A stretch of 64,000 nt of DNA from contig JABGOP010000002.1 in assembly GCA_018645365.1 (NCBI GenBank), forward strand, positions 3,409-67,408, given 5' to 3'. Shown one piece after another: positions 2,966-61,494 of this stretch. The notes under the pieces are model-generated. The model saw nothing but the letters and a program-made list of their open reading frames with translations, had not been told where the DNA came from and did no database searches. Both the position numbers and the translations under genes were made by a program. The stretch comes from Candidatus Cloacimonadota bacterium (GTDB taxonomy: Bacteria; Cloacimonadota; Cloacimonadia; Cloacimonadales; TCS61). How positions within the stretch are numbered: position 1 is the first letter of the stretch; each line of letters opens with the position of its first letter.

Positions 2966-3937
2966 ATGAAGAAAATTTTGATATTAATAGTGCTACTGAG
3001 TATTACGGGCTTGTTGTTTGCATCCTATGTTCAATTGGGCTTTACTGAAAGATATACGGTAGAAATACCAACAGCGTATGTTCCAACAGCAAAAATAGTA
3101 GAATTTGATAATATGAATTATTTTGGAATGAAGCACGGTGGATGGTATCTGAACCACATTTTTGCGTTAAAATATGGAATAGATAATAAATATGAATTTA
3201 CCATTTTTGCCCGTGGAAAAGATTATGAAATGGATGGGTATTTTCCCGATTCGCTTTATACTGATCCAAATGAAAATATTCAACCTAAATACAATGATGA
3301 AGTAATCTGTATTAATGCAAAATATTCCATAATTGATGAAACTGACAAGTTACCAGCAATTGCAGTTGGAATGAATGGTATTGATGGTGCAATTAAGAAA
3401 TTAATTGATTCGAAAGCTTCGGCGAATTGGGCACCCTATTTTGTTTTGAGTAAATCGTTTATTGTAACTTTACCAGTCATAAATACAATTCAACCCACCG
3501 TTCATTTTGGGAATGGACAAAGGGCAGAATTCCACTCTTTTTCACCATATGATAAATTATTTTTTGGTTTTTTTGGTGCTCTCTCTATTCCCATAAATGA
3601 CAATATAACATTGACTAGTGAATTTCGTGGTGCAAATTTTAATGCATCTGGTATTTATGAATGGGATAAGTTTGCCATAAAAACTGGATTAGTGCATTTT
3701 GAAGAGATTTTATTGAATGATGATGTGTCTGGTTTTACCTTTTTTTTGAATTTTAAATATAGAGTAGATTATTTTTCTAAACAAGAAAAAGATAGACCAC
3801 GAAACACAAATTTAAATATTACTCCGTCAACTGACCCTTCTGATCAACTGCTTTTAGATGAGCTCAAACAAATTCAAGAACAAAGAATACAGTCTGAAAA
3901 AGAATTGGAAGAACTTCGTAAACTTCTCGAAGATTAA
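2966..3937 (+). CDS. Secreted beta-rich protein with C-terminal coiled-coil tail, function unknown (first gene of operon)
   Basis: The track starts at GTG 2954. ATG 2966 is preferred (GGAGG 2956-2960, 5-nt spacer). Signal peptide MKKILILIVLLSITGLLFA, aromatic/beta-rich body ending FTFFLNFKYRVDYF, then ~55 charged heptad-like residues (LLLDELKQIQEQRIQSEKELEELRKLLED). Confidence 0.75.
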   Translation: MKKILILIVLLSITGLLFASYVQLGFTERYTVEIPTAYVPTAKIVEFDNMNYFGMKHGGWYLNHIFALKYGIDNKYEFTIFARGKDYEMDGYFPDSLYTDPNENIQPKYNDEVICINAKYSIIDETDKLPAIAVGMNGIDGAIKKLIDSKASANWAPYFVLSKSFIVTLPVINTIQPTVHFGNGQRAEFHSFSPYDKLFFGFFGALSIPINDNITLTSEFRGANFNASGIYEWDKFAIKTGLVHFEEILLNDDVSGFTFFLNFKYRVDYFSKQEKDRPRNTNLNITPSTDPSDQLLLDELKQIQEQRIQSEKELEELRKLLED

Positions 3938-3938
3938 G

Positions 3939-5921
3939 ATGAAAAAGATTTTTACGGCGATCATTTTTTTGACCGCATTTTTACTTTTTGCACAAACTAA
4001 AAATAGCGTTTTGATTCGTCAATTAAACACAGAAATTCGTATTTTGATAGAACAAAAACGAGAAGCAAAAATTTATGCTGAACTACTCGAACAAAAAAAT
4101 GAGATAATTTTGCTCATCGAAAAAAATAAGGCAAAAAAAGTAAGAAAGCTATTTCTTAAACAAGCCAAAATAATTGATTATTTTTTGGAAGAAGATAAGA
4201 TAAATTCTGCAGTATCTAAATTAAATGAGCTGAAATTTATTTTTGGAGAAATACATTTTTTGGCAGATTTATTTTTGTATTACGATGCAAAAATAGCTTT
4301 ATTTAAAGGTGAAGATAATTTAGCCGTAGATTTGTTGGAAAAATTGTTAACGCAATTTCCTGATTCTGAAACGCGAAATTTTGCCATATTAGAATTGGAA
4401 AATATTTATTTTCTTTACGAATTAGACTGGAAATTTATCGGGATTTATAATCAGTTTGATGAAGAAAAAACGGACTTGCAAAAATATCGTTTCGCGCACT
4501 GTAACTATAATATTGGTAACATTGCAGATGCCAAATCGATGTTCCAAGTTTTATTAAATTCTAAAGATTTTAGTTTTCGTGCTAAATCGATGTTAGCGTT
4601 AGTTTCCTATTTTTCTAAGGGTGTAAAACCGGCAATTCTTGAATTTCAAACTTTGGAAAACAGCTATCAAAAAAATCCGCCGCCGCACTATTATTTTGTG
4701 CTACTCTCATTAGCCCGTCTTTTTGCCGAACAAAATGAATTCGATAAATCGCTCGCGTATTACGAAAAATTTTATCAAATGCACCAAGAAAAAGTTGATG
4801 ATGGTGTGTTATATGAAATTGCTACCCAATACAAAAATGTGGGAAAATATGAAAATTCGCTCACATATTTACGACGAATTGTGGCAGTTTCACAAAAGAC
4901 AAAATATTTTGCACCAGCAAAATTTCTAATTGCGGTAATTGAACAGGAATTAGGCAATCTTGACAATGCAGAACAGCATCTTGAGGATGTTATTTTGCCA
5001 AATAATGAGTTTCTGGAAACACTTACTTCGAAGTACGATTTGCTGAATAAATATAACGATTTGCAAAGGCAAGTGATTGCAGATTCAGAAAATATAAAAT
5101 TAAAAACTGAAATTTTGGAAACAGAAAAACATCTTCAAAACACGAATTTATTTATCGAAAACTATTATGCAAAATTGGACTCATCAACGGTAACAACTCT
5201 GCAAGAATTAGAAATAGAATATTTGCATTACTGTGAAACAATTGCCGAAATTGACGCAGTAATTCAATTTCGTGAAACTACCCAAAATAGAGAATTATTG
5301 CCGATTGTAGATGATGCAATTGCCAAAGAAGAAGCATCGCTCGTTTTGCTTCAGATGATGAAATACCTAGCAAATGTAAAAAATATTTCTACGACAGATT
5401 ATGAAATTGCCAAAGCTTTAGCGGTTGAACGTATTTACGAAAATTCATTGCTAGAAATGTGGAATAAAATTGAGCAGACTGCAAAAATTAACAACTTTTC
5501 GAATATGTTGATTTTTATTAAAAAATCTCAAAATTTGATTGAGGGCAACATTGCATCTCTCGATTTGATTGCAAAGTACAAATTTAATCCGCAAATTAGT
5601 GATGAAGCACTGGCTTCAATAAAAGCGGAAGCCGAGAATATTGAACACAATAAAAATGAATTATTGGCTTTACGCGAAGATATTTTGAATAATCTTAATA
5701 AAAAGATCGCCCAAAAATTGAGTAAAAAACGCAAGATACTTTTTGATGAATTTGCTGAAATTAAAGTATCATATCAACAATCGATTGATTCGATGAAAAA
5801 ATATATTGGTCGTGAAAATCAAGAAGGAACGCGTACGCTTTTGGATGTGCTCTTCAAACAAACGCAAAAAATTGATGCTGAATTTGAAGAATTGAGAGAG
5901 GATTTTAAGCAAGATGAATAG
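3939..5921 (+). CDS. Secreted TPR-repeat protein with long C-terminal coiled coil
   Basis: The track starts at 3858 inside the upstream gene. ATG 3939 (TAAGATG junction) gives signal peptide MKKIFTAIIFLTAFLLFAQ. The N-terminal half is TPR-like helical hairpins. The C-terminal ~300 aa is E/K/L/Q-rich and coiled-coil-like. Confidence 0.75.
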   Translation: MKKIFTAIIFLTAFLLFAQTKNSVLIRQLNTEIRILIEQKREAKIYAELLEQKNEIILLIEKNKAKKVRKLFLKQAKIIDYFLEEDKINSAVSKLNELKFIFGEIHFLADLFLYYDAKIALFKGEDNLAVDLLEKLLTQFPDSETRNFAILELENIYFLYELDWKFIGIYNQFDEEKTDLQKYRFAHCNYNIGNIADAKSMFQVLLNSKDFSFRAKSMLALVSYFSKGVKPAILEFQTLENSYQKNPPPHYYFVLLSLARLFAEQNEFDKSLAYYEKFYQMHQEKVDDGVLYEIATQYKNVGKYENSLTYLRRIVAVSQKTKYFAPAKFLIAVIEQELGNLDNAEQHLEDVILPNNEFLETLTSKYDLLNKYNDLQRQVIADSENIKLKTEILETEKHLQNTNLFIENYYAKLDSSTVTTLQELEIEYLHYCETIAEIDAVIQFRETTQNRELLPIVDDAIAKEEASLVLLQMMKYLANVKNISTTDYEIAKALAVERIYENSLLEMWNKIEQTAKINNFSNMLIFIKKSQNLIEGNIASLDLIAKYKFNPQISDEALASIKAEAENIEHNKNELLALREDILNNLNKKIAQKLSKKRKILFDEFAEIKVSYQQSIDSMKKYIGRENQEGTRTLLDVLFKQTQKIDAEFEELREDFKQDE

Positions 5922-8900
5922 AATAAAATTTATATTTTTGTTGTTAATTTCTTTCAGCTTATTTGCACAAAATAATGAACTTGATGAAAAATTCAGTCAA
6001 AAAATGGCATATAAACGCAAGGTTTATGAACAGACTCTCAAATTTATCACACAAAATCCAGAATCACCGGGAATTGCTGGGCTTTATTTTAATTTGGCAG
6101 AAATGAGTACGGAAATAGACGCAGCTTCTTTGCGAAAAACAGCAAATTATTATCAAAAAGTTTTAGAGCTTGATCCTGAATTTATCTATCAAGATGCAGT
6201 CCTATACAACATTGGCTATTTTACATTTGAAGCGGAGAAAGATAGTCTTCAAAATTTGCGATATCAAAATATAGATTTGGTGGTAAATTGGCCTGATTCA
6301 TTACGAATTTCGGCTGAAAAGGCAAAAATTGCCATCGAATCTTACCAAAAAATTGAAGCAGAATTTCCATATTCAGAATATCATACCGAAGCAATTTATC
6401 GACTGGGTGCCATCTATTTTGAATTGGCATTAGATGCACGAAACCCGCAGGAACTATATCCGATAGCATTAAAATATTTTGATACAGTTGCCAGAAAAAA
6501 AGGCGATGATTTGCAACATTTTGGATTATTTCAAAGAGGTTGGACGAATTTTACGAGCGGAAAATTTATTGATGCAATCGATGATTTTACTGAAATTTTG
6601 GAAATTATCAACCGCGATTCTCTCAAAACAACGGAAAAGATGTTTTTTGAAGCTGATGCAATCGAAAATATGGCTTTTAGCTTGAGTGAATACGACGAAA
6701 ATTTTGTAGAAAAATCTGTTGCCGCTCAAAAAGCAAAGGAAATATTTTCCAATTTTGTGAGCGATGAATATGGCAAAGAAATTATTTTAGCCGCGATTGA
6801 TCTCAAATTGAAATATAATGCACCGATGCAAGCGATTGACTTGTATAATGCGTTTATCGAGATTTATCCGCAAAACAGAGATTGTCCAAGTTTTGTCGAT
6901 TCGGTTATGACTGTTTATAAGCGATATCCGTCGATGACGCGAAATAATGTAGATGCGATTGATTTAATTATTGCGGAAGAGAAGCGATTGGTCGAAGATT
7001 TTACGATTGATTCCGCTTGGTTCAAATCAAATTCTGGAAAAGATATTTCGAAGCAATTGGGGATAATTAGAAAAAGTTTCAAGCGGATGGGCGATATATA
7101 TCACAACAAATTTATCACCACGAATGCGGAAAAGGATTTCGTGAAATTTGAAAATTTAGTTGCACGCTTTTGCGAATTTGATATTTTCCTCAATGAAGAA
7201 ATTGTGCAAACACAAAAAGATTTTCGTAAACGCGTTATCGATTTGAATTTCCACCTCGCCGAATTTTCCCAAAATCCAGTTCATTACTTTAATGTGGTTG
7301 GAAAATATCGTGAATTTAATGAGTTATATCCAAATCACGCTGATATTTTTGATTTTCAAGAAAATATTTTTATTTGCTTAGATAAAAGTTATGATTTGTT
7401 GTTACCTCAAATTGAAACGCAAACTTTCGTCGATACTTTGCACAACATTACACTCGACAAAAATGGATTGGATTCACTTTACATCAATGCTAGTTTAGAT
7501 TACGAAGATTTGCTTTCAGATGTGAAATTGAATAGAATTCAAAAATCAGAACGAGTTAGAACGATTTATAAGCGTGCTAAAATTCGTTTTGAAGGCAATG
7601 ACTTGGATTCTGCATTTGTGGATTATGAAAAATTATTGACTTTCAGAATAGATAAAAATTTCAAAAAAATATGTAATGTTAAATTAGCGGAAATTAGTGA
7701 ATTGAACGGTGATTTTGGGTTTGCAGAAAAATTCTATCAAGAAGCGTCAAAATTTGCTTCTAAATCAGAGAAAAAGGATTTACAACAGAATGCACTTGCT
7801 TCCATTAATTCTGCTGCCGAAACTTTGCTAAATAATGGTAATGCAGAAGTTGCTGCGGCTGAATATCTTCGTCTGGCAAAAGAGCTTGAAAATACTAATG
7901 TGGAAAAAAGTATAGGATTTATGTTACGTGCAATTGATGTTTATAAAAACATCAATGAATATCAAAAAGCGATAGATTTATTTTTGCAAATTGCAGATTT
8001 GAAGCAAAATAAAAACGAAATTCTCGCTGCGTTTTCTGGAGCATGGTCAATTTCGGATAGTTTGGCCGAAAACGCAGATTTACTGTCTGCCATTACCCTT
8101 TGGAAGCAAAGTGAAAATTTACGAAATCAATTTATTAAGAAATATAAAAAATCAAATGAAGCTTATATTTTGCGTCGTCAAATTATTGAATTTTATGAAA
8201 ATTATCAATTTAACGATAAAGAAAAAGCAGCAAAAATGTACATTAAACTCCATAATAATGCGAGTGAAATGAATTTAGGTGAAGATTCAAAAGAAGCGGT
8301 TTTTGCCAAAGCAATTTTGATTTACGAAGAACTAAAAGATGAAGCTAAAATGGTAGATTTAATTGTCCAGTTTGAAAAATTATACCCAAATTATTCTGCA
8401 ACTGATGGATTAGTTGGTAAGATTGCAGCACTTTACATCGACCGTCAAAATGTAGATGATTTAATGAGTTTTGAGAAGATGTACCCGCTTCACCCAGATG
8501 TAGATGTGGTTTTGAGAAATTTAGCAAATATCTATCTTGAAGATAGCGATGTAAGTTTGATGCTTTCATTTCAGAGAAAATATCCAAATCACGATGCTTC
8601 TGAAATTTTGTTAAATAAAGTTGCCGAAATGTATAATAAAAGCAAAAATATTGAAGATATTCTTGCTTTTACCAAAATGTTTCCTCAGCATTCCGCAAGC
8701 TTAGAATTGCAAAAAACAACAGCGACAATTTATCACGAAAATGGTGATGAAGATAAATTGGAAGAGATTGCGCGCCTTATCAAAAAGAAAGATCCAGATT
8801 ATAATCTTTTAGAGCAGTTAGCCATTCAAAAATTGGTGAAAATAAACGCCGAAATTGATACTCTCTTCGTAACTGAACAATTTGATTTGATGTTAGAAAA

Positions 8901-10563
8901 AATTGAGGAATTCAAAATAACGGATAAGCATTATCGAAAAGATGACATCGAAATTGATTTAACTGCAAATTATGATATTCACGAATATTACGCAAATTTC
9001 GTAGATTTTTACGCTAGATTTGAACAAAAATTATCAAATATTCAAACTGAATTTTTAGGTGTTAGTCCACAAAAATTGATGCGTGTGAACGAGTTGACAG
9101 AGTGGAAAAAACATTTAAATAGTGGCGATAGCAGAGTTCAAAAATTAATGGAAAAATGTGATGAGTACAGTAATGAAATGGTATTGTTGATTAAAGAAGG
9201 CGTTGATTTTGGGCTTGATATCAATCAAAAAACAAAGGCCCTTTATTTTGTTGCTCAAATTTACGATTATGGTATGGAAATTATTTCAGTTCAAATGATG
9301 AGATTTATCAATGAATCTAACCAACTAAATAGTGGAGATATTGCCCAAAATCCAGTTGTTCAAAAACAATGGAAAGCAAATGTGTGGAAAAAAGCAAAAG
9401 AGTTTGCACTCGGATTTCAGAAGAAATCGGCTCAATATTACAACACAATTATGATGACTTTTGTGGATGATAAGGATTATTCTGACGAGTGGACAAATCT
9501 AACATTAAATAGACTAATTGATTGGAAAGTTCGTTCGCCGAAAACTTATCTTTATGCGTATTCTGATTCTACTTGGATTCAAAATAATATACCGATTAAT
9601 GATGTTATTTCTGCTGTAAATGTAGATTCTATATGGATAAATGCAGCCGAGTTTTCTGTAAACGACACCGTGAAATATTTAGAAATTTCACAGAATTTCA
9701 CGACCTATTTTGTGAAAAAATTCGAGAGTATTGTTAAACCAGAAAGATTTTCGGTAAATTATATTTATAACCAGCCAATAGGGATTTATTTGAATGGCGT
9801 AAAATTGGAAAAAGAGCACATTATTCAAGATACGATAAATGGAGAATTGCAGCTTAACACTAACTCTATCAGAAATCTTAAAGATGGTGAGAATACAATT
9901 ATTTTTGAGATTGAATATGATTCTTTGATGGTTGGGAAAAATAAGTTTATTGCTGATTTTGAGATGCAATACGACAAAGAAAAATATGATTTTGCCTTTT
10001 CAACAGAAAAGAAAATTCTTCTTTCTAATTTTTCATGGTTGACGAAAAAAGAAGATTTAGTAGATTCAACTTTTGCGATAGATTCGAGTTGGATTTTGGC
10101 AGATAGTGCTAATTTCTCATTCTTCAAAAATCAGATGTTTGGTCTGCAAAATAGTGAAGCTATCGAGATTTGGTCACCCGCAATTGATACGACAAAAATG
10201 GAAAATGTCTATTTCACAAAACAATTTAAGATTGATACCGAATTTGTGCGTGCGACCGCAAAATATATTGGTCAAAAATCAGTTTCAATCTGGATAAATG
10301 GCGAAGAAATAATTTCAAATGAAGAGATAATTTTTGACACAAAATTGAATCAAGTTCAAACGCAAGAGATAGAAATTTCACAGTTCATAAGTGGTCTCAA
10401 TACCATTTTGGTAAAAGTTGTTGGCGACAAAGCATTTAAGGGTTTTATTTTTGAAATGGAATATGTAGTGAAAAGGACGCTCGAAAATAGTGTTGACAAT
10501 AATATTGAGATTGAAAATGATGCAAACTTAAATGAAGGAGGAAACGATGAGATGGAAAATTAG
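5914..10563 (+). CDS. Giant (1549 aa) secreted TPR protein with BamD/CpoB(YbgF)-like F-x-K-x-YP repeats and two C-terminal beta-sandwich modules
   Basis: Uninterrupted 4650-nt ORF overlapping the upstream stop by 8 nt. Signal peptide MNRIKFIFLLLISFSLFAQ. Many TPR-like hairpins (e.g. IESYQKIEAEFPYSEYHTEAIYRLGAIYFELA). C-terminus has two similar modules (...YFVKKFESIVKPERFSVNYIYNQPIGIYLNGVKL... and ...VYFTKQFKIDTEFVRATAKYIGQKSVSIWINGEEI...). Confidence 0.85.
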   Translation: MNRIKFIFLLLISFSLFAQNNELDEKFSQKMAYKRKVYEQTLKFITQNPESPGIAGLYFNLAEMSTEIDAASLRKTANYYQKVLELDPEFIYQDAVLYNIGYFTFEAEKDSLQNLRYQNIDLVVNWPDSLRISAEKAKIAIESYQKIEAEFPYSEYHTEAIYRLGAIYFELALDARNPQELYPIALKYFDTVARKKGDDLQHFGLFQRGWTNFTSGKFIDAIDDFTEILEIINRDSLKTTEKMFFEADAIENMAFSLSEYDENFVEKSVAAQKAKEIFSNFVSDEYGKEIILAAIDLKLKYNAPMQAIDLYNAFIEIYPQNRDCPSFVDSVMTVYKRYPSMTRNNVDAIDLIIAEEKRLVEDFTIDSAWFKSNSGKDISKQLGIIRKSFKRMGDIYHNKFITTNAEKDFVKFENLVARFCEFDIFLNEEIVQTQKDFRKRVIDLNFHLAEFSQNPVHYFNVVGKYREFNELYPNHADIFDFQENIFICLDKSYDLLLPQIETQTFVDTLHNITLDKNGLDSLYINASLDYEDLLSDVKLNRIQKSERVRTIYKRAKIRFEGNDLDSAFVDYEKLLTFRIDKNFKKICNVKLAEISELNGDFGFAEKFYQEASKFASKSEKKDLQQNALASINSAAETLLNNGNAEVAAAEYLRLAKELENTNVEKSIGFMLRAIDVYKNINEYQKAIDLFLQIADLKQNKNEILAAFSGAWSISDSLAENADLLSAITLWKQSENLRNQFIKKYKKSNEAYILRRQIIEFYENYQFNDKEKAAKMYIKLHNNASEMNLGEDSKEAVFAKAILIYEELKDEAKMVDLIVQFEKLYPNYSATDGLVGKIAALYIDRQNVDDLMSFEKMYPLHPDVDVVLRNLANIYLEDSDVSLMLSFQRKYPNHDASEILLNKVAEMYNKSKNIEDILAFTKMFPQHSASLELQKTTATIYHENGDEDKLEEIARLIKKKDPDYNLLEQLAIQKLVKINAEIDTLFVTEQFDLMLEKIEEFKITDKHYRKDDIEIDLTANYDIHEYYANFVDFYARFEQKLSNIQTEFLGVSPQKLMRVNELTEWKKHLNSGDSRVQKLMEKCDEYSNEMVLLIKEGVDFGLDINQKTKALYFVAQIYDYGMEIISVQMMRFINESNQLNSGDIAQNPVVQKQWKANVWKKAKEFALGFQKKSAQYYNTIMMTFVDDKDYSDEWTNLTLNRLIDWKVRSPKTYLYAYSDSTWIQNNIPINDVISAVNVDSIWINAAEFSVNDTVKYLEISQNFTTYFVKKFESIVKPERFSVNYIYNQPIGIYLNGVKLEKEHIIQDTINGELQLNTNSIRNLKDGENTIIFEIEYDSLMVGKNKFIADFEMQYDKEKYDFAFSTEKKILLSNFSWLTKKEDLVDSTFAIDSSWILADSANFSFFKNQMFGLQNSEAIEIWSPAIDTTKMENVYFTKQFKIDTEFVRATAKYIGQKSVSIWINGEEIISNEEIIFDTKLNQVQTQEIEISQFISGLNTILVKVVGDKAFKGFIFEMEYVVKRTLENSVDNNIEIENDANLNEGGNDEMEN
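8371..8766 (+). repeat. Four exact-period tandem 99-nt (33-codon) coding repeats inside the giant TPR gene
   Basis: Units start at 8371, 8470, 8569 and 8668: FEKLYPNYS..., FEKMYPLHP..., FQRKYPNHD..., FTKMFPQHS.... Conserved positions are F1, K/R3, Y/F5, P6, H/Y8, A19, Y22. Confidence 0.85.
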
Positions 10564-10795
10564 CGTAATTTTAATGATTATTGCCGTTTTTGGTTTTGCT
10601 CAAAATCCCAAAGTAAATTTAGATAAGTTTAAAGAGAAGAAAAAATTGGTGAGTGAAGAGGTAGTTGAAGAAACAATCCAGATTCGTAAGCCAGAAAATG
10701 CAGTGATGATGTCACGAAAGCGTACAAATTTAGAGTTTTATTATAAAATAAATATTCGTGAAAGATTAATAAAATCAAATAAATTATTATATTAA
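10547..10795 (+). CDS. Small secreted K/E-rich protein (82 aa), unknown function
   Basis: AGGAGG 10536-10541 with a 5-nt spacer to ATG 10547 (track start 10532). Signal peptide MRWKISVILMIIAVFGFAQ. Overlaps the end of the giant gene by 17 nt. Confidence 0.6.
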   Translation: MRWKISVILMIIAVFGFAQNPKVNLDKFKEKKKLVSEEVVEETIQIRKPENAVMMSRKRTNLEFYYKINIRERLIKSNKLLY

Positions 10796-10804
10796 GGAGA
10801 AAAA

Positions 10805-11530
10805 ATGAGTAGAAAATGGATGAAGGTGTTGTTAGTTGCAGTGTTTACTGTGATGTTTGGTAATTTAGCGGCGGTTAATTTGGTCGATATGTATATGGAT
10901 GGTGGACCATTTATGCACATAATTGCTGGTTTGTTTGTGGTTATGATTGTGGTGGCATTGGTTAAATTTTTCCAATTATCTATTACGGAAAAACTCGACA
11001 CGAAGAGATTTTACCTTAAATTGAAGGGTTACATTGCTAATGACCAATTTGGTGAAGCCGTTGAAATTAGTAGTCAGTTCAAAAAGACAACAATGGGTTT
11101 TATTTTCTGGAATGGTTTAGTTGCTTTTTTGGATGCTAAAAAAGCTGGTAAGAAAGGGTTTACATTGCAGAAAGATGTACAAAATGCTTTTGATGAAGCC
11201 GGCTTACAGAAAATGCCATCAATTGAAGCTGGACTTTTTTGGTTAGATATTATTGCACAAGTAGCTACTCTTCTTGGTTTGCTCGGAACTATTTTCGGCT
11301 TGGTTGCTGCTTTTGATGCTCTTGCAAATGCACCTGAAAATTTGAAGCAAAAAATGCTTACAGAGGGTATTTCGCAAGCAATGGGGACTACAGCGTGGGG
11401 TCTTTTGGTAGCAATTCCAACGATGGGTATAAAAGGTGCATTACAAGCAAAAGCCGATAAAATTGTTAATGATATTGATGAATACAGTGTGAAGATTATC
11501 AACAGAATTAGTTATAAAATAGAGGATTAA
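10805..11530 (+). CDS. exbB: MotA/TolQ/ExbB-family proton channel
   Basis: AAGGAG RBS. 241 aa with typical C-terminal TM pair and motif LLGLLGTIFGLVAAF...LTEGISQAMGTTAWGLLVAIP. Confidence 0.9.
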   Translation: MSRKWMKVLLVAVFTVMFGNLAAVNLVDMYMDGGPFMHIIAGLFVVMIVVALVKFFQLSITEKLDTKRFYLKLKGYIANDQFGEAVEISSQFKKTTMGFIFWNGLVAFLDAKKAGKKGFTLQKDVQNAFDEAGLQKMPSIEAGLFWLDIIAQVATLLGLLGTIFGLVAAFDALANAPENLKQKMLTEGISQAMGTTAWGLLVAIPTMGIKGALQAKADKIVNDIDEYSVKIINRISYKIED

Positions 11531-11533
11531 TCA

Positions 11534-12037
11534 ATGGCTTATGCTCCATCGAAATCAAGAAAGATATCGAGAAAAGAACCGAAAGAACCGAATCTTATTC
11601 CCATTATGAATCTGTTCATTGTTGTCATTCCGATGTTAATGACGATGATGGTTTCGGTTCATTTGGCGATGTTGGAAATCACTCTTCCAACTCCGTCTGG
11701 CGGTGGTGGTTCAGAAGAAATAGAACAAAAAGAAGAACCACCCAAAGAGATAATGTTGGCTCTTTTTCCCGATAAATTTGAGATAAGTATTGAAGGAAGT
11801 GAAGATGTTATCAAGATACCTATTTTGGAAAATACACATAATTACATGGAACTTCATAACAAAATGGGCGAATTAAAACTTGTACACGAAAGACAGCAAA
11901 CAGTTAAAATTATCCCCGACCCCAATGTGAAATTTGATACTTTGCTTCGTTCGGTTGATATTTGTAAAGGTAATGGGTTTCCAAACATAACTTATTCTAC
12001 AATTCAGAAAAAGTATTACCGTGTTGGTAAAAAATAG
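11534..12037 (+). CDS. exbD: ExbD/TolR-family protein, paralog 1 (Asn at the conserved TM Asp position)
   Basis: 167 aa. N-terminal basic segment plus TM NLIPIMNLFIVVIPMLM, aligning with TolR NIVPLLDVLLVL. Periplasmic alpha/beta domain (VKIIPDPNVKFDTLLRSVDICKGNGF). Confidence 0.8.
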   Translation: MAYAPSKSRKISRKEPKEPNLIPIMNLFIVVIPMLMTMMVSVHLAMLEITLPTPSGGGGSEEIEQKEEPPKEIMLALFPDKFEISIEGSEDVIKIPILENTHNYMELHNKMGELKLVHERQQTVKIIPDPNVKFDTLLRSVDICKGNGFPNITYSTIQKKYYRVGKK

Positions 12038-12046
12038 AGGACTGAG

Positions 12047-12685
12047 ATGATACGATCAAATGTTGCTGTGAATAGGGGGAGAATTCAACCGGGTGGGTCA
12101 ATATCAAGTCGTTTCAAGATTAAGGCAAAAGGGAAAAAAGCGAAAGATTTAAACATCACTTCCCTGATTGATATTTTAACGATTTTGTTAGTTTTTATGA
12201 TTAAAAATGTTTCGATGGATGCTGCCCAAAAGAATGCTCCAGAAGGTATGGAAATGCCAACGACATTCAATAAAAATGAACTAATTGAAAGTGGTGATGC
12301 GGTTTTTGTGAAAATATATTCACCAAAAATTGATGGTCAAACTGGCGAAGAATTGGACGGTAAAATTCTTTACGGAAAAGAGAATATTTTGGTAGGCAGT
12401 TTATCTAATTTTGTTTCTGATAATAACATTCGCAAAGTTCTTTTGCAATATTTGAAGTTGGAATCGAAACAAATTAGTAAAACAGTGGATAGTGAAGGTA
12501 AAAGTAAAATTCCTTGTTTGTTGATTCAAGCTGATAAAGACTTGGAATGTCGCTATATTACTGAATTTATTAAATTTAGTGGACAGGCTTCTTTTGCAAA
12601 TATCTACTTTTCCACAATTCATACTGAAAACCAGGATGAAGTTTTGGGGATTGTGGCAAACTCAGCAGAAGTGGTTGGAAATTAG
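12047..12685 (+). CDS. exbD: ExbD/TolR-family protein, paralog 2 (Asp retained, extended periplasmic domain)
   Basis: GAGGA RBS. 212 aa. TM LNITSLIDILTILLVFMI with the conserved Asp. Longer periplasmic part ending LLIQADKDLECRYITEFIKFSGQASF. Confidence 0.8.
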   Translation: MIRSNVAVNRGRIQPGGSISSRFKIKAKGKKAKDLNITSLIDILTILLVFMIKNVSMDAAQKNAPEGMEMPTTFNKNELIESGDAVFVKIYSPKIDGQTGEELDGKILYGKENILVGSLSNFVSDNNIRKVLLQYLKLESKQISKTVDSEGKSKIPCLLIQADKDLECRYITEFIKFSGQASFANIYFSTIHTENQDEVLGIVANSAEVVGN

Positions 12686-12691
12686 GCGGTT

Positions 12692-14164
12692 ATGATGAAT
12701 AAAATTTTGAATTTAACTTTATCTTATAGAGGGAAACATCTAGATACCATCAAACATAATCGTGACTTTAAGAATAAATTTATTATCGGCAGCGACAAAC
12801 ATTTATTTTGGCAAATTCTCGATAAGAATTTCCCACAAAAACACACTTTTTTAACTTTTTCAGGTGGGAAATATGTTATTCATCTTTTGGAAAATATGGA
12901 TATTTCGGTTCGAAAAAATGATGATGAACTTTCCCATGATGAAATAGGTAAAATGCTGATTAATAATAAACTTCAGCTTTCCGCAAACATAAATGGTTCA
13001 ATAGCTTTTGCCGATTGGGAAATTGGCTATAAATTTGTGGAACCTTTCAAATTGAACCTAAAACATTTTTCAAAGGCAGAAATTGCAACTGCTATAAAAA
13101 AATACGGTCGAAGAGAACCAATCTCAAAAGAACATAAATTTACGACATTTTTCTTGCTTTTTGGATTGCTTTTTACAGCCGTTGGGCTTTATATTGGCAC
13201 AAAAAATTATGTACCACCAGCTGAAATTAGCTTTACCGAACGCTTCCAAAAAGTGGAGGAAATTGCCACTCGAATTGAAGCAGAAATGGAAGAAATTGAA
13301 TTAGAAAAAAAAGAAGATACACCAAAAGTTGATGTAACGAAGCATCGTGCAGAAACAGCAGAAGCTGCTGAAGAAGCAGTGGAAAAAGCACAAGAGGTGG
13401 CAGCAGCAGATTTTGCCGCAGAATTTGGTTTGGAATTTGATGAAACTGCAACTACTGGTGGTGACGATTTTGGTGGTGAAATTTTGGAAATTGCCCAAGT
13501 TAATGATATTGTCGTAGCACCTCAAACTGGTGGTGGCAGTGGAACTGGTGAAATTCCGGGCTCTGGTAGTGGCTCTGCTTTATCTGGTTCTGGTAGTGGT
13601 GAGCTAGATTTTGGATCTGGCGGTGATTTCGGTGGTTTTGGCGACGGTGGTGGTCTCGGTGATTTAGGTAGTCTTTCGGGTGGGAATTTGGAAGGTTTAG
13701 ATCTCGGTGGCGCAGGTTTAGAAGAGATTGATATTTCGGCTATTGGCGGAAAAATTGGTAATTTGAAAACGATTAAAATTCAAAGCAATGCACAACTTGC
13801 TGCTGCTAAGAAAAAGTTTGCTGGCGTGAAAGCAGTCAAAGAAGAAGCTATTGAGTTGGAAGAAATTACACCAGAAGCAAAAACGGAAATTGCGAAAATT
13901 AACCAAATTGTGAATACATATCGACCGCAAATTGCTAGTCGTTATCGAGTGGAATCGATGAAATATGATATGTATGGAACGATGAATATCACGCTTTACA
14001 TTGAAGAAAATGGTACTATTGTAGCGGTTGAATTTGACATTACAGTCGGCAGTCATTTCACAGATGAATTTTTGGAAATTGTCCGTGCGATAATTTTAAA
14101 ATGGAAAATCCCAGTTAAAGAAGCCCAGATTTTTGAGTTCCGCCAAAAATTTGTGAAACAATAA
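12692..14164 (+). CDS. Bitopic TonB_C/AgmX-PglI-like energy-transducer candidate with cytoplasmic N-domain, acidic helix and Gly-rich linker
   Basis: 490 aa. ~150-aa N-terminal domain, single TM FTTFFLLFGLLFTAVGLYIGT, E/A-rich helix, then G/S/D low-complexity region. C-terminal ~90 aa follow the TonB_C-like pattern (YRPQIASRYRVE...GTMNITLYIEENGTIVAVEFD...ILKWKIPV...FEFRQKF). Confidence 0.7.
   Translation: MMNKILNLTLSYRGKHLDTIKHNRDFKNKFIIGSDKHLFWQILDKNFPQKHTFLTFSGGKYVIHLLENMDISVRKNDDELSHDEIGKMLINNKLQLSANINGSIAFADWEIGYKFVEPFKLNLKHFSKAEIATAIKKYGRREPISKEHKFTTFFLLFGLLFTAVGLYIGTKNYVPPAEISFTERFQKVEEIATRIEAEMEEIELEKKEDTPKVDVTKHRAETAEAAEEAVEKAQEVAAADFAAEFGLEFDETATTGGDDFGGEILEIAQVNDIVVAPQTGGGSGTGEIPGSGSGSALSGSGSGELDFGSGGDFGGFGDGGGLGDLGSLSGGNLEGLDLGGAGLEEIDISAIGGKIGNLKTIKIQSNAQLAAAKKKFAGVKAVKEEAIELEEITPEAKTEIAKINQIVNTYRPQIASRYRVESMKYDMYGTMNITLYIEENGTIVAVEFDITVGSHFTDEFLEIVRAIILKWKIPVKEAQIFEFRQKFVKQ
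13529..13717 (+). repeat. GGT/GGC-rich low-complexity coding tract (Gly/Ser/Asp linker)
   Basis: Encodes GGGSGTGEIPGSGSGSALSGSGSGELDFGSGGDFGGFGDGGGLGDLGSLSGGNLEGLDLGGAG. Imperfect and locally GC-rich compared with its surroundings. Confidence 0.8.
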
Positions 14165-19786: not shown

Positions 19787-19850
19787 CAGATTTGGAGGAT
19801 ATGTCGAAAAAATTGTGCTTTAATTTACAAAAAATGTTTTGGAGGAAATT

Positions 19851-21407
19851 ATGCAAAAACTAAAAATTTTATGGGTCGATGATGAAATTGAGCACTTAAA
19901 ACCTTTCGTCATTTTCCTTTCCGAAAAAGGGCACAAAGTGACGACTGTTTCGAACGGCTCAGATGCAATTAAATTGGTTTTAAAAAACCATTATGATTTG
20001 GTGCTTTTAGATGAAATGATGCCAGGAATGGACGGCTTGACAACCTTAAAAGAGATAAAAAGGATTAACAGTTCGTTGTCGGTCGTGATGGTGACAAAAA
20101 ATGAAGAAGAAGATTTGATGGAAGATGCGATAGCTGGTCAAATTGCCGATTATTTGATTAAACCGATAAATCCGAATCAAATTATTTTGACGATTAAAAA
20201 ATTATTTCAGACAAATGAAATTAAGAAAAATAAAATTGGTGCAGATTATGCCAGATTTTCATCAGAATTAAATGAAGATTTGGGTTCAAATCCAAACTGG
20301 GATGAGTGGTCACAAATTTATCAGAAATTGTGTGATTGGGATTCAAGATTGGATGATATTCGTGATGAAACAATGACGCATTTACATTTTTTGGAGAAAT
20401 TAAATTGCAACTCTGAATTTTCAAATTATGTAACGCGAAATTACAAAGATTGGCTAAGCACAGATGAACGACCAACTTTCTCATTTGACTTGATTTCTGA
20501 GTACGTAATTCCTGCAATTGAGCGTGAAAATACACCGGTTTATTTCATCGTTTTAGATTGTATGCGGCTAGATCAATACTACACGATTGAGCCTTTTTTG
20601 AAAGAACTATTTGATGTGGAAGTGGATTTATATTACTCCATTTTACCGACTGCTACTCCATATTCGCGAAATGCGATTTTTAGCGGTTTGATGCCAAATG
20701 ATATTGCTAAAAATTTCCCAAAATATTGGACAAATTCTGCAGACTTAGATACTAGCCGTAATCGTAACGAACATCAGCTTTTAGAGGAACATTTGAAAGA
20801 TTTGGGTCACGAAATAAACGAAAGTAAATATGTGAAAATTTTCAATATAGAAGAAGGCGATTACACTTTGCGTAAAATAGAATCTTGGAAAAATGAAAAA
20901 TTAATTGTTTTAGTGTATAATTTCTTAGATTTACTCGCACACCATCGTTCCCAAAATCAGGTTTTGAAGGAAGCAATTCCTGATGAAGAAGCACTTCGTC
21001 ATTTCACGAAACATTGGTTCACGCACTCCACATTTTATGAAACTTTAAAAAAAATTAAAGAACAAAATGCAACGGTTATTATCACAACTGATCACGGTTC
21101 AATACGCGTGAATAGGGCAAGTCAGCTAATTGGAAATAAGGAAACGACCTCATCCGTCCGCTACAAACAAGGCAAAAATTTAAAGATGCTAGATAAACAT
21201 TCATTTTATTTGGAAAATCCAGAAGAATATGGCCTTCCGAAGCAGAGCATTATAGAGAATTATGTGCTCGCAAAAGAAGATTATTACTTTGTTTATCCGA
21301 ATGCATTTCATAAATATATGAAACAATATGTTGGCACATTTCAGCACGGTGGAATTTCGATGGAAGAGATGATTTTGCCAATTTCAATTTGCAGACCCCA
21401 AAAATGA
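19851..21407 (+). CDS. porX: PorX-type response regulator: CheY-like receiver fused to a PglZ (alkaline-phosphatase superfamily) domain
   Basis: GGAGG 19841-19845 with a 5-nt spacer to ATG 19851 (track starts at TTG 19839). Receiver: ILWVDDE, LVLLDEMMPGMDG, DYLIKP. PglZ-type motifs: FIVLDCMRLDQ, LPTATPYSRNAIFSG, DLLAHH, ITTDHGS, FQHGGIS. Confidence 0.8.
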   Translation: MQKLKILWVDDEIEHLKPFVIFLSEKGHKVTTVSNGSDAIKLVLKNHYDLVLLDEMMPGMDGLTTLKEIKRINSSLSVVMVTKNEEEDLMEDAIAGQIADYLIKPINPNQIILTIKKLFQTNEIKKNKIGADYARFSSELNEDLGSNPNWDEWSQIYQKLCDWDSRLDDIRDETMTHLHFLEKLNCNSEFSNYVTRNYKDWLSTDERPTFSFDLISEYVIPAIERENTPVYFIVLDCMRLDQYYTIEPFLKELFDVEVDLYYSILPTATPYSRNAIFSGLMPNDIAKNFPKYWTNSADLDTSRNRNEHQLLEEHLKDLGHEINESKYVKIFNIEEGDYTLRKIESWKNEKLIVLVYNFLDLLAHHRSQNQVLKEAIPDEEALRHFTKHWFTHSTFYETLKKIKEQNATVIITTDHGSIRVNRASQLIGNKETTSSVRYKQGKNLKMLDKHSFYLENPEEYGLPKQSIIENYVLAKEDYYFVYPNAFHKYMKQYVGTFQHGGISMEEMILPISICRPQK

Positions 21408-57913: not shown

Positions 57914-58062
57914 ATTCAATTTAACCTCGCCCGTCATTAATTTTTTGAGCAAGATTGTGTCAAATGTTTTGTGACAATGCAGATAATCGTTTTAAATGTT
58001 CAAAAAATAACTTGCCTAATTATTATGATTTTTTTTTCTGCGATAAATATTTGGAGGATAAC

Positions 58063-61000
58063 ATGCGAAAAGTAGCAGTTTTAATTTTGTTAATTTGTGC
58101 ACAATTATTAATTGGTTTTGAAATTTCTGGTAACCCTGAAAACTGGTTATTTGAGGATTTTATTGGTTTTGATGAAGTTGGTGATTGCACCTCACGAACC
58201 GGCGATATTTCGTCCGTTTTTATTCATCCAGAAACCGAAAAACTTTTTTTGAGAATTACTTTTGACGATATGTATTCTCACAAAAGTAAAATTGACAATT
58301 TTGCAAATGAGAATATGCAGATAATGTTGATTATTTCCGAAAACGGCAAAGAATTATTTAAAGAAAAGTTTGATACTAATAAACTTTCGGGGCAGAAACA
58401 AGCATTCGCTTTTTTGCGAACCCCATCATATAATCTTGTGGAGTTTTCGATAGATTGGTTACATTCAAAAGAAAATTTATCCTTTGAAATTCAAATTATG
58501 AATAATCTGGAAACAGTCGATAGCTTTACTTCTGATGTAAATCGAAATTTTCGAGGTGGAAATTGTGCTTTTGTGCATCACGGAAATCAAGGTTTGACTT
58601 ACACTGAAGTTTTTTATGGTCAAAATCCACAAGAAACGAGTGGTTTTGATGAAATTCTGGAAGTTCATCAAGCGACAGATATTCCTGGAAATTTTCATAT
58701 GTCTGGCACTTTGATGCCAGCTGCTGAATGGCATAATCCAGAATTTAACGATTGGCTTGAAAATGGCGTAGATGATGGTTATGTCTCGATGTTAACCTCT
58801 GCGTTGGGGCAGCACATTATGCCATTTGTACAAAATGACATGAATGATTGGTCGGTGGCAGTTGAGTGCGATATGGTGGAATATCGTTATGGTTACACCC
58901 CAAAAGTAGCATGGATTCCAGAGCGGGTTTGGCTTTCACCTGAAAATTACCCGGATGCTGGCGTGGTTGATTGGTTGGGGAACAATTGGGAGCAACACGG
59001 CGTCGAGGCTGTTATTCTCGATGATTGGCCTCATTGTTCAGGGCATGATAATAAAAAAATACATTGGATGAATAATGGTGTTGGCGTGAATTTGCGTGTG
59101 ATTCCAATTGATAATGAATTTGTTGGAAAGATGCATTACGATGCAGATGGTGCCAAAAATCACATATCTTCGACTGGGCAATATGGCATTACAGTTTACG
59201 GTACAGATTGGGAAGTTGCCGCCGAAATGAACGAGCATCACGATGGTTTTTTTCTCGATAATTACGAAAGTGTGATGTGGTATTGTTATGATAATTATCC
59301 TGCAATTAATGTTTGGAAATTAGATGAAGCTTTGAATAATCCAGATTTTAATGGTTCAGGGATTGATGTTCAAAATGGAACTTATGGACTTTGCGGTGGT
59401 GAAAACGGTTATGGTGGTAGTAACAACAGTTGGTACACACAATGGGCTAGTGCTATTTCACATTCCGATTATCACACTCCACAATGGAATTATGGCACAG
59501 TTTGGAACGATACTTACAACAATTTAATGTCAGCACCCAACAATTCCCTTTCTCAGTTGGCGTGGTACACATTGATGATAAATCTACATGAAACAGGGTG
59601 GCACACGAGTGGAGATGTAGCAGATTGGGAACATCGCTACTCTTCACACATCAAAAATGCAAATGTATATGCCGCAGCATCTCGCTGGCAGAATGGCGAT
59701 TATACAGAAACAACTGGTTGCTATTTAGATGATATTGACCACGATGGAATTGATGAATTGGTCATCCATAATGATAATGCTTTCTTTGTTTTTGAAGAAA
59801 TTGGTGGAAAAGCAAATTGGATTTTTTACAAAGATGAATTTGATGGTGGCTATTCCGTTGTTGGTTCAGATGTCTCATATTATCCCGAAACAGACGGAGA
59901 TTACAATGAAAATTCTTCCTACAATCATTTTGCCGCACTTTCCGATGTTTCTCAAAATATGCAACACTCTATTTACGATATTTCAGTTGAACAATCCAGT
60001 GGTAATATTGTGCGCGCAACTTTTTCACAACAAGGAGTTAGTAAGACCATTCAACTGGAAAGAGATAAAAAATATTTGAATGTTACTTACGATTTTTTGG
60101 GTGAATCTGGTTATGTGAAATCTGGTTGGACACCAGATTTATTGGATATCATTTGGTCTGGAAAAAGCCATTTGCAAAGAATGTGGGGTGATGATGGTTC
60201 ATATTGCGGGCAGCGAAATTCTGCAAATGGAGCTACAATTGCACTTGTTTTAGGTGATGGTGGTGCGTCTCACAACGGAGAATTTGAAGGTACTCTCGTT
60301 AAAGGTGATGAGATTTTTGGCGAAAATATTTTTAACTTGCGTCTTTTTGCTGGCTACACTTCGCCACCTTATGATGCTAATTATAATAAAGTGATTGAGT
60401 TAGACGAATTAGCTTTGGAGGTTTTTGATGATATAGTTCCTCAACTGAATGAAAATGCACTCAAAGTTGGTGCAAATAAAATTCAGCTGATTTTTAATGA
60501 ATCGGTTCAAAATATTGAAAATATAGCTAATTATGAATTGCAAAATTTTGTTGAAAATTATTCAATTTTAGACATTATTATTTCTCACAATCGAAAAGTT
60601 ATCTTGATTTTAGACCAAGAATTAGCTCTTGCTGAAAACGGTAATATCGTAGTTTCAAATGTTACTGATTTACAAGGTAATCCGCTTGATCCGGCTTTCA
60701 ATAGTGCCGAATTAATAGAGATTATTCAACCACATTTAGTAGGTTCAATGAATAATTGGGCACCATCAAACCATGATTATGACTTGATTTTAAACAATAA
60801 TGGCGTTTGGGAAATTACTTTGGATTTGGAGATAGGAGAACATCAATATAAAATTATTGAAAGTGATAGTTGGAACGGAAATGATTGGCCAGCAAATAAT
60901 CAAATTATCGACCTTAATTTGCCTTCACTAATTGAAATTAAAGCAAATTGTGGAGTTTGGCCGATTTTGAAAAATGGAGATGAATTTGTAACACATTTCA

Positions 61001-61494
61001 ATCCAGTCGTGGTGGGAGATTTTATCTCAGAAGTTGGTGGAATTAACTGGAATCCAGAAGATTTAACGGGTGAGATGCTCGATGAAGATGGTGATGGAAT
61101 TTACGAATGGCAAGTTCTTGTTCCGACTGGAACTTGGGGATTTAAAGTTGTTTTAAATCGTGATTGGGAGCAAGATACAGAAGGAAATGCGGGAAATTAT
61201 TCATTTTCTTCAGATGGAATTTCGACCACAATTTTTAGTTATGATATGGAACAAAATTTGACATCAACCTCGGCTGAAAATTCTATTATATTTGGCGATG
61301 TAGATGGAAACGGTGAAGTTCAGGCGATGGATGCTTCATTAGCACTGCAAAAAGTGGTGGAATTAATTGCTTTTGAAAGTTGGCAAATAATTGTCGCAGA
61401 TGTAGATGGAAACGGTGAAATACAAGCTTTTGATGCTTCCTTGATTTTGCAATTTGTTGTCGGCATCATTGACCACTTTCCAATAGACGAATAA
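58063..61494 (+). CDS. Secreted GH57-like alpha-glucan-active enzyme with Ig-like domain, two glycogen/starch-binding-like beta-sandwich modules and a C-terminal dockerin-like module
   Basis: GGAGG 58053-58057 with a 5-nt spacer to ATG 58063 (track start 57955 over-extended). Signal MRKVAVLILLICAQLLIG. GH57-like blocks AFVHHGNQ, FHMSGTL, AWIPERVW. CBM-like HLVGSMNNWAP...GVWEITLDLEIGEHQYKI and VVVGDFISEVGGINWNP...GIYEWQVLVPTGTWGFKVV. Confidence 0.65.
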   Translation: MRKVAVLILLICAQLLIGFEISGNPENWLFEDFIGFDEVGDCTSRTGDISSVFIHPETEKLFLRITFDDMYSHKSKIDNFANENMQIMLIISENGKELFKEKFDTNKLSGQKQAFAFLRTPSYNLVEFSIDWLHSKENLSFEIQIMNNLETVDSFTSDVNRNFRGGNCAFVHHGNQGLTYTEVFYGQNPQETSGFDEILEVHQATDIPGNFHMSGTLMPAAEWHNPEFNDWLENGVDDGYVSMLTSALGQHIMPFVQNDMNDWSVAVECDMVEYRYGYTPKVAWIPERVWLSPENYPDAGVVDWLGNNWEQHGVEAVILDDWPHCSGHDNKKIHWMNNGVGVNLRVIPIDNEFVGKMHYDADGAKNHISSTGQYGITVYGTDWEVAAEMNEHHDGFFLDNYESVMWYCYDNYPAINVWKLDEALNNPDFNGSGIDVQNGTYGLCGGENGYGGSNNSWYTQWASAISHSDYHTPQWNYGTVWNDTYNNLMSAPNNSLSQLAWYTLMINLHETGWHTSGDVADWEHRYSSHIKNANVYAAASRWQNGDYTETTGCYLDDIDHDGIDELVIHNDNAFFVFEEIGGKANWIFYKDEFDGGYSVVGSDVSYYPETDGDYNENSSYNHFAALSDVSQNMQHSIYDISVEQSSGNIVRATFSQQGVSKTIQLERDKKYLNVTYDFLGESGYVKSGWTPDLLDIIWSGKSHLQRMWGDDGSYCGQRNSANGATIALVLGDGGASHNGEFEGTLVKGDEIFGENIFNLRLFAGYTSPPYDANYNKVIELDELALEVFDDIVPQLNENALKVGANKIQLIFNESVQNIENIANYELQNFVENYSILDIIISHNRKVILILDQELALAENGNIVVSNVTDLQGNPLDPAFNSAELIEIIQPHLVGSMNNWAPSNHDYDLILNNNGVWEITLDLEIGEHQYKIIESDSWNGNDWPANNQIIDLNLPSLIEIKANCGVWPILKNGDEFVTHFNPVVVGDFISEVGGINWNPEDLTGEMLDEDGDGIYEWQVLVPTGTWGFKVVLNRDWEQDTEGNAGNYSFSSDGISTTIFSYDMEQNLTSTSAENSIIFGDVDGNGEVQAMDASLALQKVVELIAFESWQIIVADVDGNGEIQAFDASLILQFVVGIIDHFPIDE
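61297..61452 (+). repeat. Duplicated dockerin-type Ca-binding segment (coding direct repeat)
   Basis: Identical 21-mer GATGTAGATGGAAACGGTGAA at 61297-61317 and 61399-61419 (102-nt period). Encodes DVDGNGEVQAMDASLALQ and DVDGNGEIQAFDASLILQ. Confidence 0.8.

Follow-up and report, generated by a model that had tools for sequence, protein, structure and literature searches.

An ExbD/TolR pair with Asn and Asp at the proton-site position in a putative Agl/Glt-type envelope motor cluster of Cloacimonadota

We analysed a stretch of 64,000 nucleotides from a Candidatus Cloacimonadota bacterium (assembly GCA_018645365.1, contig JABGOP010000002.1, positions 3,409 to 67,408), hereafter the window, which encodes a TolQ/ExbB-like protein followed by two different proteins of the ExbD/TolR family. 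Its homologues likewise place the organism in Cloacimonadota. The first of these, D1, has Asn at the position of the proton-carrying Asp of the family, the second, D2, keeps the Asp, and the pentamer subunit encoded with them lacks the Glu of its third transmembrane (TM) helix, TM3. The genes form a tightly packed row on the + strand, followed downstream by priA. The row, which begins with genes for tetratricopeptide repeat (TPR) proteins, is as follows (positions are those of the window).

3858..5921, + strand: TPR protein of 687 aa, the module's first TPR gene, recognised by Pfam TPR families
5914..10563, + strand: large TPR protein of 1549 aa with an N-terminal signal peptide and BamD/YfiO-like repeats
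10532..10795, + strand: small secreted protein of 87 aa, present in most Cloacimonadota loci
10805..11530, + strand: TolQ/ExbB/AglR-like pentamer subunit of 241 aa, recognised by Pfam MotA_ExbB PF01618 (82.5 bits, cut-off 22.9) and by alignment with E. coli TolQ and ExbB
11534..12037, + strand: D1, ExbD/TolR family, AglQ-like 'position-1' protein of 167 aa, with Asn26 at 11609-11611
12047..12685, + strand: D2, ExbD/TolR family, AglS-like 'position-2' protein of 212 aa, with Asp42 at 12170-12172
12692..14164, + strand: GltG-like putative transducer of 490 aa

The spacers among the motor genes are 3, 9 and 6 nt, with 9 nt between D1 and D2.

Both D1 and D2 scored above the gathering threshold of Pfam ExbD PF02472 (37.2 and 28.4 bits, respectively; threshold 25.4). 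The first-pass annotation had compared them by hand with TolR and ExbD motifs; the tolQR and exbBD genes of E. coli K-12 were fetched, and these motifs proved exact (TolR NIVPLLDVLLVL, ExbD NVTPFIDVMLVL). In a MAFFT alignment with these two references, Asn26 of D1 (TM segment NLIPIMNLFIVV, codon AAT) and Asp42 of D2 (TM segment NITSLIDILTIL) fell in the column of TolR D23 and ExbD D25, and a repeat gave the same placement. When a D1-family profile was aligned by HMMER to Serratia ExbD (PDB 7ajq_F), Asn again stood opposite Asp25. Hence the protonatable TM Asp of the ExbD/TolR family is present in D2 and absent from D1, and the earlier assignment of Asn and Asp to this column was borne out by both the MAFFT and the profile alignment. 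A substitute acidic residue in D1 at the channel-facing position, which the first-pass annotation had named as an outcome that would refute it, was rejected. None is conserved in or near the helix: His43 and Glu48 vary among orthologues, and the acidic or polar residue ahead of the 'LP' motif is also found in normal ExbD/TolR proteins.

The TM segment of D1 is near-invariant among sequences of 41-77% overall identity, and D1 retains the N-x-x-P-x-x-[polar] signature and the helix length of pore-inserting ExbD/TolR proteins. An AlphaFold2 model of D1 (pLDDT, the predicted local distance difference test score, 69) consisted of a TM helix at residues 21-50, a disordered linker and an alpha/beta domain (beta-beta-beta-alpha-beta-alpha-beta), and its best PDB matches were the periplasmic domains of TolR (5by4) and ExbD (8pek/8vgc). 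Single-sequence searches of the PDB with D1 and with D2 matched no ExbD/TolR; only the D1 profile did. We also noted a 14-pair hairpin followed by a T-rich stretch inside D1, at 11616-11651, just past the Asn codon. A promoter/terminator scan gave nothing beyond the shuffled expectation, and since terminator-like matches in the region are at chance level, this hairpin is probably meaningless.

D2 differs from D1 within the helix as well. The Pro that usually stands three residues before the Asp is replaced by Ser in D2 and is kept in D1. This complementary pattern (Pro with Asn in D1, Ser with Asp in D2) was seen in every Cloacimonadota pair and in six distant modules of the Asn type; at one Myxococcales locus (L047), D2 retains the Pro. 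The first-pass annotation had also described D2 as extended by extra periplasmic sequence. Its length of 212 aa stands, but the extension is largely lineage-specific and partly cytoplasmic: D2 proteins of 209-212 aa are confined to the closest relatives of the window, and other D2 orthologues have 166-197 aa. Compared with E. coli ExbD, the additions are a longer cytoplasmic N-tail, a lineage-variable insert of 14 residues (SPKIDGQTGEELDG), a longer mid-domain segment that is common to D1, and a C-terminal tail. A single-sequence AlphaFold2 model of D2 was unusable (pLDDT 33), and the fold of D2 was judged from the Pfam alignment alone.

The Asn is a property of the D1 family. It occupies the column in 118 of the 118 database orthologues that cover it (the other 2 of 120 are truncated upstream of the column) and in D1 of 45 of 45 Cloacimonadota loci, which were obtained by scanning one genome per GTDB species (the species representatives). 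One of the two patterns used in that scan included the Asn; a word-based search and an exhaustive HMMER search were independent of it. The exhaustive profile search, over 1.8 billion representatives, returned 1506 matches at E <=0.001, and among the best 148 of them (50%-identity representatives) the residue is Asn in 135, Asp in 5, Ser in 3, Gly in 3 and Ala in 1. A second search seeded with distant members found Asn in 116/116. The named members of the Asn-type family come from Cloacimonadota, KSB1/Zhuqueibacterota, Calditrichota, Desulfobulbaceae, Myxococcales metagenome-assembled genomes (MAGs) and one Pseudomonadota MAG; most members of the family are of metagenomic origin. Counted across the loci, Asn is encoded by AAT in 36 cases and by AAC in 20. 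Because both Asn codons are used and GAY never is, the codon pattern indicates purifying selection on Asn as an amino acid.

These counts bear directly on the idea that D1 is a decaying, functionless duplicate, its Asn being neutral or strain-specific. The same Asp-to-Asn change inactivates a model ExbD (PMC11658791), as decay would allow; yet Asn is fixed in the orthologues and the Cloacimonadota loci alike, its codon has turned over synonymously, it spans several phyla, and full-length open reading frames (ORFs) with an invariant TM segment have been maintained. We consider decay highly improbable. The first-pass annotation had reserved the case that orthologues carry Asp, which would make the change strain-specific; the orthologues carry Asn, and a pseudogene or strain-specific substitution was rejected on its fixation in orthologues and across phyla. 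In the closest relative (L001 4629-5111, 93% identical), the D1 frame is open only from the Met before the Asn and similarity extends upstream of it; the likely cause is an error in the sequencing or assembly of this MAG.

Wherever the next gene downstream lies on the contig, an Asn-type gene has behind it an Asp-type gene of a distinct family, with one orphan as the sole exception. D2 has Asp in 43/43 Cloacimonadota loci whose contig includes it, and wherever the contig is long enough the Cloacimonadota row reads TPR gene, small ORF, ExbB-like gene, D1, D2, 490-aa protein and, usually, priA. The pairing was also seen in the Desulfobulbaceae locus and in 1/2 Myxococcales loci, the contig of the other Myxococcales locus ending within D1. 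Seven further distant genomic contexts were inspected, and 6 of them have the Asn-type gene with an Asp-type gene directly after it. The order in the six is TPR proteins, small secreted ORF, MotA_ExbB, the ExbD with Asn, the ExbD with Asp and then a gene whose product has 390-475 aa. The Desulfobulbaceae locus has in addition an FHA domain, an outer-membrane barrel and TPR genes. The seventh context is an orphan: an Asn-type ExbD gene of a Pseudomonadota MAG (L051 8001-8522), which is surrounded by acetyl-CoA carboxylase-type genes and has neither an ExbB, nor a second ExbD, nor a GltG-like gene in its vicinity. The survey of syntenic clusters that the first-pass annotation had proposed thus came out in favour of conservation, with the asymmetric pairing kept across phyla.

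Upon inspection of the pentamer subunit, we observed a second loss, which goes beyond the first-pass annotation. The channel Thr residues are kept, Thr162 (11288-11290) corresponding to ExbB T148 and Thr196 (11390-11392) to T181, and their equivalents are invariant in 51 Asn-type modules. The TM3 Glu (ExbB E176, TolQ E173) is replaced in the window by Gln191 (11375-11377), and across the 51 modules the position holds Q, M, T, K, V, I or L and never Glu (0/51). The variety of these residues suggests that constraint on the position is gone. The Glu is present in E. coli TolQ and ExbB and in 3/3 AglR-like partners. Of 80 metagenome loci that encode relatives of D1 of the Asp type, 69 also contain an ExbB gene, and 68 of the 69 have the Glu in every copy. 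Loss of the Glu in the pentamer is thus correlated with Asn-type D1, in statistics that are limited by phylogenetic non-independence. Because the D1 Asp and the pentamer Glu are both lost, an Asn-type core would hold one carboxylate, compared with seven in ExbBD or TolQR. Mutagenesis reportedly showed the TM3 Glu to be important (Braun & Herrmann 2004; Baker & Postle 2013); a literature search on ExbB E176 found nothing relevant. The sole Asp-type locus in which both ExbB-like genes lack the TM3 Glu (they have Ala and Gln) is L125, metagenome contig Ga0170475_131094351, possibly an intermediate or an independent loss of the Glu. Many Asp-type relatives from soil and other metagenomes (L069-L137) show another arrangement, a pair of ExbB-like genes and then a pair of ExbD-like ones.

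The joint loss of the D1 Asp and the pentamer Glu, with the Thr residues invariant, could also reflect another ion chemistry, in which the motor uses a different coupling ion or a site made of the Asn, the Thr ring and the D2 Asp. As Cloacimonadota live by anaerobic fermentation, it is conceivable that they have a sodium economy. Against this, there is no positive sequence sign of a sodium site, and the assortment of residues in place of the Glu resembles relaxed constraint and not a new ligand. We regard a different ion chemistry as quite unlikely.

The gene order points to the system to which the cluster belongs. In Myxococcus xanthus, as here, one TolQ-like gene (aglR) is followed by two different TolR-like genes (aglQ and aglS); there is a GltG-type protein with a TonB-C/AgmX-PglI-like end, and TPR proteins are encoded in the cluster. 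The aglR, aglQ, aglS and gltG genes and the TPR genes gltC/D/E make up the Agl/Glt 'core complex', which is found clustered in scattered non-myxobacterial lineages, where its function was stated to be unknown (Luciano et al. 2011, PMC3169522). The few matches to the D1 profile that bear Asp come from clusters that resemble aglRQS. In one, a Myxococcales locus, an ExbB-like protein of 220 aa is followed by ExbD proteins of 158 aa (whose Asp is residue 28, in line with D28 of AglQ) and 187 aa; a Coatesbacteria locus additionally has a GltG-like gene and a GYF+TonB_C (GltJ-like) gene. Against the Asn-type D1 profile, the first ExbD of such Asp/Asp clusters reached 98-107 bits and the second 16-44; against the D2 profile, the first reached 12-18 bits and the second 102-114. 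The clusters that serve as reference here come from MAGs and were taken to be AglRQS-like on account of their taxon, gene order, protein lengths and Asp28; the sequences of M. xanthus are not among them. With either profile, E. coli ExbD and TolR gave 17-44 bits.

D1 and D2 are only 13% identical. Because the cross-scores separate them cleanly, D1 (AglQ-like) and D2 (AglS-like) are, as judged by profile, two old and distinct families that apparently predate the Asp/Asn split, and the description of the pair as paralogs in the sense of recent copies of one ExbD does not hold. In a neighbour-joining tree, the Asp-type position-1 proteins formed one clade. Internal branches of <=0.01 leave the placement of this clade relative to the Asn types unsettled, and therefore the direction of the Asp/Asn change is undecided.

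The 490-aa protein is consistent with this kinship. It comprises a cytoplasmic N-domain, one TM helix, an acidic/Gly-rich linker and a TonB-C/AgmX-PglI-like C-terminal domain. Aligned by hhalign, its family matched GltG-like proteins over the full length (probability 99.6%, E 7.7e-25). When 5 of the 7 GltG-like proteins in that comparison were scanned with NCBIfam, 4 of the 5, the downstream proteins of four distant Asn-type modules, passed NF033768 (84-102 bits, cut-off 40) and matched NF033760 at E 1e-24 to 1e-35. The window protein, unlike M. xanthus GltG, is below the NCBIfam GltG cut-offs, with a weak match to NF033768 (20.8 bits against a cut-off of 40) and none to NF033760; the equivalog cut-off of 650 for NF033760 was reached by no GltG-like protein here. 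Further differences from Myxococcus lie in the motor itself, as the AglQ-equivalent of the window has Asn and its AglR-equivalent lacks the TM3 Glu. AglQ and AglS are both reported to have the TM Asp (PMC9389320), and gliding requires the proton-binding site of AglQ (PMC9120999). Group A genes, those specific to gliding, were not seen, and Cloacimonadota are not known to be motile. The D28N allele of AglQ is reportedly that of Sun et al. 2011.

With the 5:2 motors ExbB-ExbD-TonB and TolQ-TolR-TolA of E. coli the cluster shares the MotA_ExbB and ExbD families, the channel Thr residues (T148/T181 and T145/T178) and a single N-terminal TM helix with a periplasmic alpha/beta domain. It differs in having two different ExbD/TolR subunits, one Asp and no TM3 Glu. 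Neither E. coli system fits its other genes. A Ton identity was rejected: the Ser-His-Leu-Ser helix of TonB/TolA is not in the 490-aa protein, whose TM helix has no His, nor in D1, and no TonB-dependent transporter is present among the annotated neighbours within the window. A Tol-Pal identity was rejected as well, as the neighbours are TPR genes, priA, a gene for an acyl-CoA dehydrogenase homologue and panB, and no TolB or Pal domains were found among them. Collectively, these comparisons suggest that the cluster is a putative variant of the Agl/Glt-type envelope motor, a Glt-core-like module, and not Ton or Tol.

The genes upstream of the motor genes recur with them. The 687-aa protein matched TPR_6 (41.3 bits), TPR_8 (28.6 bits) and TPR_14 (26.7 bits) above their cut-offs and the remaining TPR families below theirs, these being protein-level scores with repeats summed. 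The large TPR gene lies upstream of the motor genes in 40/45 Cloacimonadota loci, that is, wherever the contig extends that far. The same slot is filled in 6/6 distant Asn-type modules by TPR proteins of ~950-1550 aa, mostly with faint YfiO-like matches, and these modules likewise have 2-3 TPR genes upstream. The small ORF begins within the 3' end of the 1549-aa TPR gene, overlapping it by 32 nt in another frame (10532-10563), and this position suggests that the two may be translationally coupled. In the distant modules, the slot after the big TPR gene and ahead of the ExbB-like one holds a signal-peptide protein of 74-177 aa; counterparts were noted at L052 6769-7188, L053 6788-7039 and L059 5720-6253. 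All of these small secreted proteins share a short motif, …I-x-[IL]-x-K-P-E/D…, with the Pro invariant, and the Cloacimonadota protein ends in NKLLY. By analogy with what has been proposed for GltF, the small protein may act as a strand-donating partner of the TonB-C-like domain.

Downstream of the motor genes lie priA, the acyl-CoA dehydrogenase homologue (recognised from the translations) and then panB (from Pfam). Elsewhere in the window, 19839-21407 encodes a PglZ domain fused to a response-regulator receiver domain. A run of ~30 genes on the + strand at 22000-52600 has a G+C content mostly of 0.24-0.31, rising to ~0.35 at the 3' end; three genes sampled from it belong to a polysaccharide-synthesis/flippase family, a possible nucleotidyltransferase and UDP-glucose dehydrogenase, and the run looks like a surface polysaccharide locus. 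A protein of 1179 aa encoded at 57955-61494 has a GH57 domain, pullulanase X25 domains and a type I dockerin domain.

How, then, might D1 and D2 be used? We lean towards the view that they are the two axle subunits of a proton-driven Agl/Glt-type envelope motor, likely assembled as 5:1:1 with a single carboxylate. A TolQ/ExbB-like pentamer would take up the AglQ-like D1 and the AglS-like D2 together in its pore, and the GltG-like TonB-type transducer, the periplasmic or outer-membrane TPR proteins and the small secreted protein would complete the complex. In the 5:1:1 assembly, which we take as the most likely one, there would be one carboxylate in the whole membrane core. The Asp of D2 would take up and release protons, while the Asn of D1 would serve as a permanently neutral, 'protonated-like' partner that could hydrogen-bond the Thr ring. 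With its different periplasmic domain, D1 would also make the axle polar, giving it two non-equivalent ends. We infer co-assembly because D1 and D2 co-occur obligately, in a fixed order and with tight spacing, because their Pro/Asp patterns are complementary, and because AglQ/AglS offer a precedent; stoichiometry, proton use and what the motor drives are inferred likewise. The residue identities, the family assignments, the synteny and the covariation, on the other hand, are shown directly by the sequences.

Several published findings bear on such an arrangement. For AglQ and AglS, AlphaFold predicted a heterodimer within AglR5 (PMC11761067). The axles of ExbBD and TolQR are homodimers whose two Asp residues lie in non-equivalent environments, one hydrogen-bonded to a Thr pair and the other farther away, and the two are thought to differ in protonation (PMC12965293). 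Asn is the usual stand-in for protonated Asp, and MotB D22N, employed in this way, caused little structural change (PMC9389320). TolQ-associated von Willebrand factor type A (vWA) proteins with a TolR-like transpore helix occur as heterologous pairs (PMC12204202), so that there, too, two different proteins are predicted in the pore of one TolQ-like pentamer; unlike the Asn/Asp pair, both vWA partners keep the Asp, and they are unrelated outside the helix. D1 has the same substitution at the same helix position as the laboratory mutants ExbD D25N, MotB D22N/D32N and AglQ D28N. In those mutants, both copies of a homodimer are altered, whereas D1 bears a natural change that concerns a single one of two different subunits, is under purifying selection and comes with a change in the pentamer.

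The same genes might instead build two complexes, a working proton motor of ExbB5-D2(2) and a non-conducting ExbB5-D1(2) that acts as scaffold, brake or assembly intermediate. Sequence data fit both assemblies alike, canonical motors have homodimeric axles (PMC12965293), and whether AglQ and AglS form homo- or heterodimers has been stated to be experimentally unknown (PMC9389320). However, a D1-only complex would have no carboxylate, Asp or Glu, and yet the pore-facing helix is the most conserved part of D1 and its Asn is retained. Moreover, D1 and D2 are always co-encoded in a fixed order, only 9 nt apart in the window, and the absence from D2 of the helix Pro that D1 keeps is a complementary asymmetry that fits a mixed pair more easily. 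We therefore think that two separate complexes are somewhat unlikely.

A third arrangement would place D1 outside the pore, as a peripheral accessory that, for example, anchors to peptidoglycan or TPR proteins or binds sideways through its helix as TonB and TolA do, and leave a D2 homodimer as the axle. The occasional Ser, Gly or Ala at the Asn position, which makes a carboxylate dispensable in the family, and the orphan copy with no adjoining ExbB would fit a peripheral D1. Retention of the pore-type signature and helix length speaks for the pore, as does the kinship of D1 with AglQ-like proteins, its closest Asp-bearing relatives, in which the proton site is needed for gliding (PMC9120999); the Ser-His-Leu-Ser motif of side-binding helices (PMC12204202), as noted, is missing from D1. 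We judge a peripheral D1 to be unlikely.

The 5:1:1 motor nevertheless faces difficulties of its own. Models of 5:2 motors (MotAB, ExbBD, TolQR, AglRQS) assume two equivalent Asp residues that are alternately protonated and deprotonated as the pentamer turns round the dimer. AglQ D28N and MotB D32N are inactive. ExbD D25N is inactive as well (PMC11658791). Since Asp-to-Asn mutants are inactive, an axle with one Asp might not turn by the alternating-site scheme, and the inactivity of ExbD D25N in E. coli makes a one-site motor mechanistically unusual. Furthermore, one Asn-type gene is an orphan with no adjoining ExbB, and the Asn type may go back to a single ancient event, in which case its covariation with the loss of the Glu could rest on few independent changes.

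A one-site motor with a D1-D2 axle could work, for example, by spending one proton per 72-degree double step or through an oscillating power stroke on the GltG-like arm. As a tentative extension, which we think possible but doubtful, Asn-type modules might represent single-carboxylate 5:2 motors with a one-site mechanism, and the Asp/Asp pair of Myxococcus AglQ/AglS might be a secondary reversion linked to processive motility. If the one-site reading is true, a Glu-to-Gln or Glu-to-Met change in AglR would modify the defect of AglQ D28N in Myxococcus.

Our literature search, with many subscription papers beyond its reach, found no description of Asn-type ExbD/TolR proteins, of ExbD1/ExbD2 heterodimers or of a linked loss of the pentamer Glu. 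The need for both Asp sites has so far been probed only by mutants that alter both copies. An Asn/Asp pair that is conserved across several phyla, with one position permanently neutral and a pentamer without the buried Glu, amounts to a natural test of the two-proton-site requirement, and the family provides proteins that could be taken straight into structural and biophysical work. Current annotation labels both genes merely 'biopolymer transporter ExbD'. Our analysis gives a likely identity, that of a Glt-core-like envelope motor, to a cluster present in every Cloacimonadota locus retrieved and in several little-studied phyla.

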